DNA of 64,000 bases from Eledone cirrhosa (Eukaryota). Positions 303 to 61,497 of the stretch are shown one piece after another. The stretch's first letter is position 1. Every line of letters begins with the position of its first letter. Under the pieces are notes generated by a model that was given only the letters and a program-made list of their open reading frames with translations, did no database searches and was not told the DNA's origin. Where the stretch lies: assembly GCA_964016885.1 (NCBI GenBank), contig OZ024758.1, positions 23,126,001-23,190,000 on the forward strand, given 5' to 3'. The position numbers and the translations under genes were made by a program.

Positions 303-532
303 TTTAATACATCGATGATAATCAAAGACCCTTCGAAATTGGTAATAAATGTGACAGCCATTGCTAAAGAAACGGAGCACTTTGAGTACTTACTACTTTC
401 ACTGCTGTCCCTTCCGGTAGAAGTTAATACTACACTGCCTGGTAGCTTGGATAAACTAATGACTTACAATAACATGATAAATATGCTATGGAGGCGGCTG
501 AACAAAATGCAAGAAGATTTTATTTTAAATGG
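303..532 (+). CDS. Exon C1 (phase 0-2) [13 protein letters not shown]...QEDFILNG
   Basis: ttttcctttcAG|TTT; GG|gtatga; overlaps ORF 315..608. Confidence 0.8.

Positions 533-61497: not shown

Follow-up and report, generated by a model that had tools for sequence, protein, structure and literature searches.

A tandem series of short exons that runs through a 64,000-nucleotide stretch of the Eledone cirrhosa genome (here called the window) raises the question of which protein it encodes and from where its repeated unit was derived. A first-pass annotation had described a giant protein composed of a two-cysteine module that could not be assigned to any named family. One half of this statement holds, as no model in the Pfam copy searched recognizes the module; the host protein, on the other hand, can be named as an ABCA transporter.

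An Array of Four-Exon Modules

When the array gene was rebuilt independently, by a splice-site scan and hand curation, 42 exons were obtained between 303 and 61497 (plus strand), in C-D-A-B order throughout and with phases of 0-2 (C), 2-1 (D), 1-0 (A) and 0-0 (B) in all 42. The predicted spliced chain of 7,399 nt codes for 2,466 aa with 0 stops, and its borders carry AG acceptors in 42 of 42 cases and 41 GT donors plus one GC, so that the cycle, fixed phases and frame originally described are reproduced. Random intron stretches of matching length are stop-free in 7-17% of cases each, which would give a probability of ~1e-41 for all 42 being open, a figure that is too strong because the exons had been picked as open. 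All 20 cysteines lie within the 10 B exons, two per exon and 22-28 residues apart, confirming the proposed C-x(22-28)-C pairs. The predicted richness in L, I, F, N and K, with amphipathic-helix periodicity, is borne out by composition (L 14.2, N 8.7, S 8.4, K 7.6, I 7.1 and F 6.4%) and by the hydrophobic moment, for which a comparison with 20 shuffles yields a z of 10.0 at an angle of 100 degrees and one of -0.9 at 170 degrees. The chain contains 55 N-glycosylation sequons and, as had been noticed, the recent unit has five N-x-T. The exons are arranged as follows:

303..532, plus strand: C exon of module 10, phase 0-2 (rebuilt model)
3949..9851, plus strand: module 11; D 3949-4109, A 6121-6254, B 8685-8900 (C-x28-C), C 9619-9851
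10736..16511, plus strand: module 12; D 10736-10893, A 12225-12361, B 13713-13928 (C-x25-C), C 16279-16511
17800..22565, plus strand: module 13; D 17800-17936, A 18542-18678, B 21183-21380 (C-x22-C), C 22351-22565
26025..29635, plus strand: module 14; D 26025-26164, A 27703-27839, B 28338-28535, C 29421-29635
29974..32706, plus strand: module 15, a recent copy with five N-x-T; D 29974-30113, A 30616-30752, B 31413-31610, C 32492-32706
33045..35779, plus strand: module 16, with the same protein as module 15; D 33045-33184, A 33687-33823, B 34484-34681, C 35565-35779
36118..39339, plus strand: module 17; D 36118-36257, A 36760-36896, B 37557-37754, C 39125-39339
40891..46425, plus strand: module 18; D 40891-41039, A 41590-41726, B 44492-44707, C 46214-46425
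47518..53257, plus strand: module 19; D 47518-47675, A 48454-48590, B 51213-51422, C 53043-53257
54452..59811, plus strand: module 20; D 54452-54591, A 55921-56048 (GC donor), B 58804-59007, C 59615-59811
61367..61497, plus strand: D exon of module 21, a module without B exon (rebuilt model)
27703..37850, plus strand: recent tandem duplication including introns, unit about 2.9-3.07 kb, 99.4-99.9% identity between units

Module 13 is 44-48% identical to modules 14-17, and its comparison with module 14 gives a dN of 0.34 and a dS of 0.80. Three units of ~3,071 bp (about 27.7-36.8 kb) are mutually 99.4-99.9% identical, two of them differing by just 2 bp, so that the exact number of units is possibly an assembly matter; these near-identical ~3.07-kb copies either arose very recently, by duplication or conversion, or were counted too often in the assembly. 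The 3' end of module 17 is divergent from the remaining recent copies. Three sequencing runs (one sample) are DNA-like, with contigs that span the introns of 29,320-32,050 and carry no splice joints; five full-depth differences along them are compatible with collapsed copies or with a second haplotype, and the read depth of these runs gives no copy number for the recent units. The view of the array as a real, old and selected helical two-cysteine repeat, extracellular or lumenal, was judged right.

The introns of the window also contain many minisatellites (periods 109, 60, 79 and 63) and an AT microsatellite of 2.2 kb (e.g., at 1037-1912, 2496-3623, 6436-7216, 22908-25135 and 62538-64000), together with ~18 copies of a SINE-like element.

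The Whole Gene and Its Place in the ABCA Family

When 200 kb of flanking DNA to either side is annotated, the same frame grows to 108 exons (5,935 aa) and stays free of stops; the modelled gene starts ~91 kb before 303 and continues for ~57 kb beyond 61497:

C19:23,034,639-23,244,383 (window-relative -91,361 to 118,383), plus strand: whole gene model of 108 exons, with the window holding the middle 42

AG acceptors are found at 107 of 107 positions and donors are 107 GT and one GC; some flank exons (e.g., 66,608-66,705) have weak splice scores, which makes the flank model provisional. The GC-AG intron follows the A exon at 55921-56048 and has the sole GC among the 108 modelled donors. Each of the 26 modules of the array starts with a D and an A exon and measures ~220 aa; the repeat reported as more than 10 copies is thus real, but amounts to about 26 once the flanks are added. 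A B exon is present in 22 of them (21 with two cysteines, one with three), three have none and one has a fused B/C exon, and they are mostly 10-25% identical to one another.

At the 5' end (window-relative -91,361) the gene codes for an ABCA-type elbow helix, followed by a 94-nt membrane-helix exon and a two-cysteine exon of the ABCA first extracellular domain (ECD1), the core of which is formed by the six last exons. The flanks that the first-pass annotation had proposed to annotate therefore hold an ABCA start with TM1 on the N side and an ECD1 core on the C side. Residues 24-42 are the single membrane-grade segment in the 5,935 aa (Kyte-Doolittle 2.85; next best 1.57), giving the N-terminal ABCA layout of elbow helix and single TM1, then a large ECD1. 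The first 87 positions of a family profile match ABCA1 4-82, the exon 108,699-108,838 matches ABCA1 354-396 (E 3.2e-6), ABCA4, ABCA7 and TIGR01257 (E 3.8e-5), and the ECD1 core motifs CG, C..KP...GKILYTP and Y.IRMD plus Cys are present. Judged by its sequence, the host protein is an ABCA-type transporter, with an ECD1 of ~5,900 aa. The ECDs of ABCA2, ABCA12 and ABCA13 have been described as abnormally large, and the accessible part of that paper mentions no repeat alongside (PMC13161189).

The core exon retrieved 148 representatives, of which 30 were looked up, and a gastropod-type sequence (P0014) that also matches the A exon of module 12 (12225-12361, E 0.003) retrieved 91 giants of 3,625-7,548 aa. 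The relatives are vertebrate ABCA12 and ABCA13, insect ldd (which we take to be CG34120) and mostly unnamed molluscan, nemertean and chelicerate proteins; ABCA12 and ABCA13 are frequent among the named matches to the core exon and core region and resemble the giant gene in topology (TM1, a very large ECD1 and a conserved ECD1 core). P0002, a 2,135-aa intronless ORF, is a full transporter with two ABC_tran, two ABC2_membrane_3 and R1_ABCA1 domains, and aligns at 48% with the last 10 modelled exons (531 columns), supporting those splice joins in an orthologue; as intronless ORFs, P0002 and P0014 would be transcripts. In a tree of the ECD1 core (24 rows, with vertebrate ABCA1/4/7 left out and the paralogues of this genome on long branches) the giant gene is sister to P0002 (96/85), and ABCA12, ABCA13 and the lamprey protein group together (100/100). 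The backbone is unsupported, so membership in the ABCA12/ABCA13/insect-ldd group is likely, not demonstrated. Other studies place fly CG34120 as sister to ABCA12/13 (PMC3724490) or group it with ABCA1/2/4/7/12/13 and report that it is required in neurons for lipid transfer to glia (10.1101/2021.03.03.433580).

Three further ABCA genes are present in the genome (3.0 Gb), at C1:354.31-354.45 Mb (minus strand), C10:24.15-24.27 Mb (plus strand) and C12:29.09-29.14 Mb (plus strand). By resemblance, we take them to be ABCA1-, ABCA2- and ABCA3-like, respectively.

Distribution of the Module in Animals

An HMM of 23 modules of this gene alone (cut-off of at least 10 bits) found 12-16 periodic copies in each of eight gastropod-type giants, 12 in Tubulanus, seven in Sinanodonta and six in Tachypleus, and none in 56 of 56 reversed proteins, in 17 vertebrate proteins or in Bulinus P0161. 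The latter protein has its modules placed after a core-like motif, possibly because of a scrambled annotation. After two iterations the numbers were 20 in Biomphalaria, 20 in Aplysia, 21 in Elysia crispata, 15 in Tubulanus, 14-17 in Patella, Batillaria and Gigantopelta, 9-12 in bivalves and 10-13 in horseshoe crab. Over 203 modules the two cysteines are kept at 98-100% and the hydrophobic pattern is conserved. Among held-out proteins, 5-7 matches were found in three of four hymenopterans, Ixodes and a millipede, and the iterated HMM had no matches in Aphidius, Vanessa, Plodia and dipterans; two of 24 vertebrates had one match of 11-12 bits, the best reversed control reaching 7.8 bits. Drosophila P0074 and Aedes P0143 (~2,000 aa) have no detectable array, indicating that it is dispensable in some lineages, and their hymenopteran and lepidopteran relatives measure ~4,000 aa.

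The search across molluscan and other proteins, suggested with the original description, thus reveals a repeat widespread in giant ABCA relatives. It is common to proteins such as Lymnaea P0160, Aplysia P0164, Biomphalaria P0162, Patella P0168 and Tachypleus P0129, and the molluscan, nemertean and chelicerate giants, which are the likely orthologues, carry 9-21 copies with a spacing of about 210-230 aa and a Cys pair each on complete ABCA transporters. Their database entries are unnamed or auto-named, and the Eledone gene differs from them by its 26 copies and its very recent expansion.

The Pfam copy searched, which lacks PF26955, gave no family on seven window exons and on the repeat-only P0067 (2,878 aa). 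PF26955 is annotated on many relatives among the giants retrieved with P0014, a caveat to novelty that could remove part of it. A B-exon profile gave kinesin noise only (E of at least 0.25), with no ABCA chain, against PDB sequences, and nothing in a word-indexed search of proteins of 129-2,000 aa, and a search for short relatives of P0002 1-540 returned one 80-aa single-exon fragment. In the ESM Atlas no match reached 0.8. No description of the repeat was found in the literature searched (most subscription journals and supplements being outside its scope), relative to which the modular reading of the giant ECD1 appears new; the transporter family is known and the relatives are already in databases.

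Origin of the Module

Instead of a free-standing new domain, the module is most likely a tandem-multiplied distal tunnel-top/lid segment of ABCA ECD1. The ECD1 core of ABCA1, ABCA4 and ABCA7 aligns throughout with the giant gene, although these transporters have one copy of the segment versus 26 modules here. The last module of P0057 is colinear with ABCA4 99-249, with C205 and C230 in register, a stretch that by itself is below significance (7.8 bits, i-E 12). A profile of 11 relatives and ABCA1 106-1255 align in a single domain of 930 bits; the module falls within its first part (ABCA1 106-~245, C195/C215 aligned), which contributes to the total score rather than having one of its own. With an HMM built solely from 154 internal modules, scores of 14-34 bits are obtained for the last region in 15 of 15 proteins and of 20-63 bits for the first module in 14 of 15 invertebrates; no control among 1,155 exceeds 10.4 bits. 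The ABCA1-like paralogue (C1:354.40-354.45 Mb) contains exactly one exon set, with phases 2-1, 1-0 and 0-0 and a C-x24-C pair, and scores just 12.3 bits with this HMM, against 10.4 for the best of the 1,155 controls; nothing in this gene corresponds to the C exon (phase 0-2). These links are individually modest, and it is their combination that makes lid homology the best reading.

The exon sizes and phases of human ABCA1 match those of D, A and B, a resemblance kept out of the evidence. In the C10 gene the two lid cysteines are split between separate exons.

ABCA4 101-300 has been termed the distal ECD (PMC8501128) and its lid is reported to be hollow (PMC7932691); the lid of ABCA1 and ABCA4 is the part that cryo-EM cannot trace, being unassigned in the ABCA4 maps (PMC7932691, PMC8501128). 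Addition of a phase 0-2 C exon to an ancestral single D-A-B set may have produced a symmetric phase-2 cassette, by which tandem growth could proceed in frame and would be still ongoing.

Predicted Structure and Possible Function

The structure and fold searches that had been recommended were run on two modules, and yielded helical units with no fold match. In an AlphaFold2 model, two modules from Lymnaea fold entirely into helices (mean pLDDT 72.8, with 80-92 in the cores), and the pTM is 0.46, so that single modules are defined, and inter-module packing and a continuous tunnel are not; the P0057 model is poor (pLDDT 59.6). Searches with both models found no match in Foldseek (best E 0.56 and 0.18), only generic helical bundles in VIA (best Z 7.2 and 6.5), and no ABCA chain among the matches listed.

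In ABCA1, according to PMC9381790, lipid is extracted into the ECD1 tunnel. It seems rather probable that the window exons encode the middle of an ABCA ECD1 in which the lid segment was multiplied to ~26 modules that would hold and relay exported lipid, and that the transporter is likely an ATP-driven lipid exporter. The array would extend the tunnel-top/lid into a long glycosylated lumenal or extracellular arm of helical modules, probably disulfide-pinned and glycosylated; lipid would be pushed through the base into the tunnel and then move from the amphipathic cavity of one module to that of the next, or be stored there, and the arm may also tether an acceptor or direct trafficking. Given lid homology, the chances that the modules of such an arm both hold and relay lipid are about evenly balanced.

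Alternative Explanations and the 3' Half of the Gene

The main rival to a lipid relay is a pure spacer or sorting role, in which the same ABCA gene with lid-derived modules would use its array as a glycosylated spacer, tether or sorting signal, and lipid would leave through the core tunnel without ever entering the repeats. This is a serious possibility, if a somewhat doubtful one: the low inter-module confidence (pTM 0.46), the mostly 10-25% identity between modules (three of them without the Cys exon), a copy number that ranges from none to 26 across animals and the requirement of the ABCA13 N-terminal region for vesicle localization (PMC7948424) are in agreement with it, whereas the pronounced amphipathic periodicity (z=10), the conservation of the hydrophobic pattern across 203 modules and the hollow lid of the homologous ABCA4 (PMC7932691) speak against it.

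A second alternative concerns the 3' half (TM2-6, NBD1, R1, ECD2, TMD2, NBD2 and R2), which was not found in the assembly, where only the top candidates were scored. The gene could be truncated, producing a TM1-anchored or released ECD1-only protein without the ATPase half, as the absence of orthologous 3' exons from the assembly and a TAA met directly on read-through past the last donor might suggest. However, a phase-2 GT donor closes the last modelled exon (118,383), in a position shared with the C1 paralogue, a 200-N assembly gap (window-relative 120,541-120,740) lies 2.1 kb beyond this exon, and the sister sequence P0002 is complete, so that truncation is regarded as quite improbable. Because this orthologue continues into a full transporter, we take the 3' half, with an additional 11 membrane helices and two ATPase domains, to lie unassembled in the gap, which would give a protein of ~7,500 aa (about 7,536 aa for the model plus the P0002 tail). 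Among the top candidates scored, R1_ABCA1 matches occur in the genome only at the paralogue-like C1, C10 and C12 loci, the first and second of which carry their own N-termini; none of these loci is nearer to P0002 than expected of a paralogue. The C12 locus was considered as a misplaced 3' half and rejected, its 25-64% identity to P0002 being no better than that of the C1 and C10 paralogues.

Past the gap (window-relative 120,541-240,000) there are minus-strand genes with ACBP, patatin and proteasome-subunit exons, the ACBP gene being presumably ECI2-like and the patatin gene PNPLA8-like. The idea that the gap also cuts this neighbor gene was discarded, as its last exons are found at about 126-130 kb.

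Finally, it is very unlikely that the module is an unrelated new domain inserted in ABCA ECD1, its likeness to the lid arising from convergent amphipathic helices and a Cys pair: direct scores to the single-copy ECD1 are weak and the B-exon profile matched no ABCA chain in PDB sequences, but position is colinear with both cysteines aligned, the C1 paralogue has identical exon phases and internal modules lead to the last ones through transitive HMM links.

Relation to ABCA12, ABCA13 and Insect ldd

With lid homology as the preferred reading, the question extends to the relatives of the giant gene. Insect ldd forms of hymenopterans and lepidopterans (~4,000 aa) carry the module in fewer and more eroded copies than here, and profile-profile comparison recognizes it at 87-95% in nine overlapping insect windows. 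By the same method, fish ABCA12 511-651 reaches 51% and ABCA13 ~3,056-3,154 reaches 30%, with the Cys pair aligned in both, and ABCA13 ~1,674-1,808 reaches 44% without the cysteines; tetrapod ABCA12 gives nothing of at least 20% and reversed windows reach up to 6.5%. ABCA12 and ABCA13 keep similarly spaced Cys pairs (e.g., 561/587 in fish ABCA12 and 3120/3145 in ABCA13) and, unlike the array described here, have no clear periodic repeat, so these weak traces are treated as no more than a lead. According to PMC7948424, the N-terminal region of ABCA13 has no homology or conserved domain and is needed for vesicle localization and cholesterol internalization; by a title cited there, the region lies partly in one 4.8-kb exon, in contrast to the four-exon cassettes of Eledone. 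Human ABCA13, called the largest ABC protein, has 5,058 aa versus the ~7,500 aa estimated here.

A furin-type RSKR is encoded in the last exon (window-relative 118,140-118,383), after an insertion rich in His and Asp. An R-x-K/R-R motif is present in the base loop of 20 of 28 anchored proteins of the ABCA12/13 group (four further proteins could not be anchored), among them those of lamprey and horseshoe crab, all 14 members of the molluscan group and three of four ABCA12, and in none of three ABCA13; the loop before the last base strand of ABCA1, ABCA4 and ABCA7 differs in having no furin-type motif. No account of the furin site was found in the literature searched. A broader conjecture, which we hold to be unlikely, is that this conserved site would process the arm, that the ECD1 of ABCA12, ABCA13 and ldd would be an ancestral array of lid modules, stacked into an alpha-helical, ATP-fed conduit or reservoir of tens of nm, and that the ABCA13 N-terminal region would be its eroded remnant. 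Such a conduit could be likened to the bridge-like lipid-transfer proteins, as their lumenal counterpart.

Significance

If the estimate of ~7,500 aa is right, the Eledone protein would be among the largest ABC proteins known, and the module reading may account for the long front end of human ABCA13. The gene offers a clean, exon-delimited lid copy of ~220 aa, with hundreds of natural variants in invertebrates, by which the structure of the lid, its lipid binding and the modular reading of ABCA12/13 would become directly testable. Its symmetric four-exon cassette would represent a still-active route to a giant transporter.
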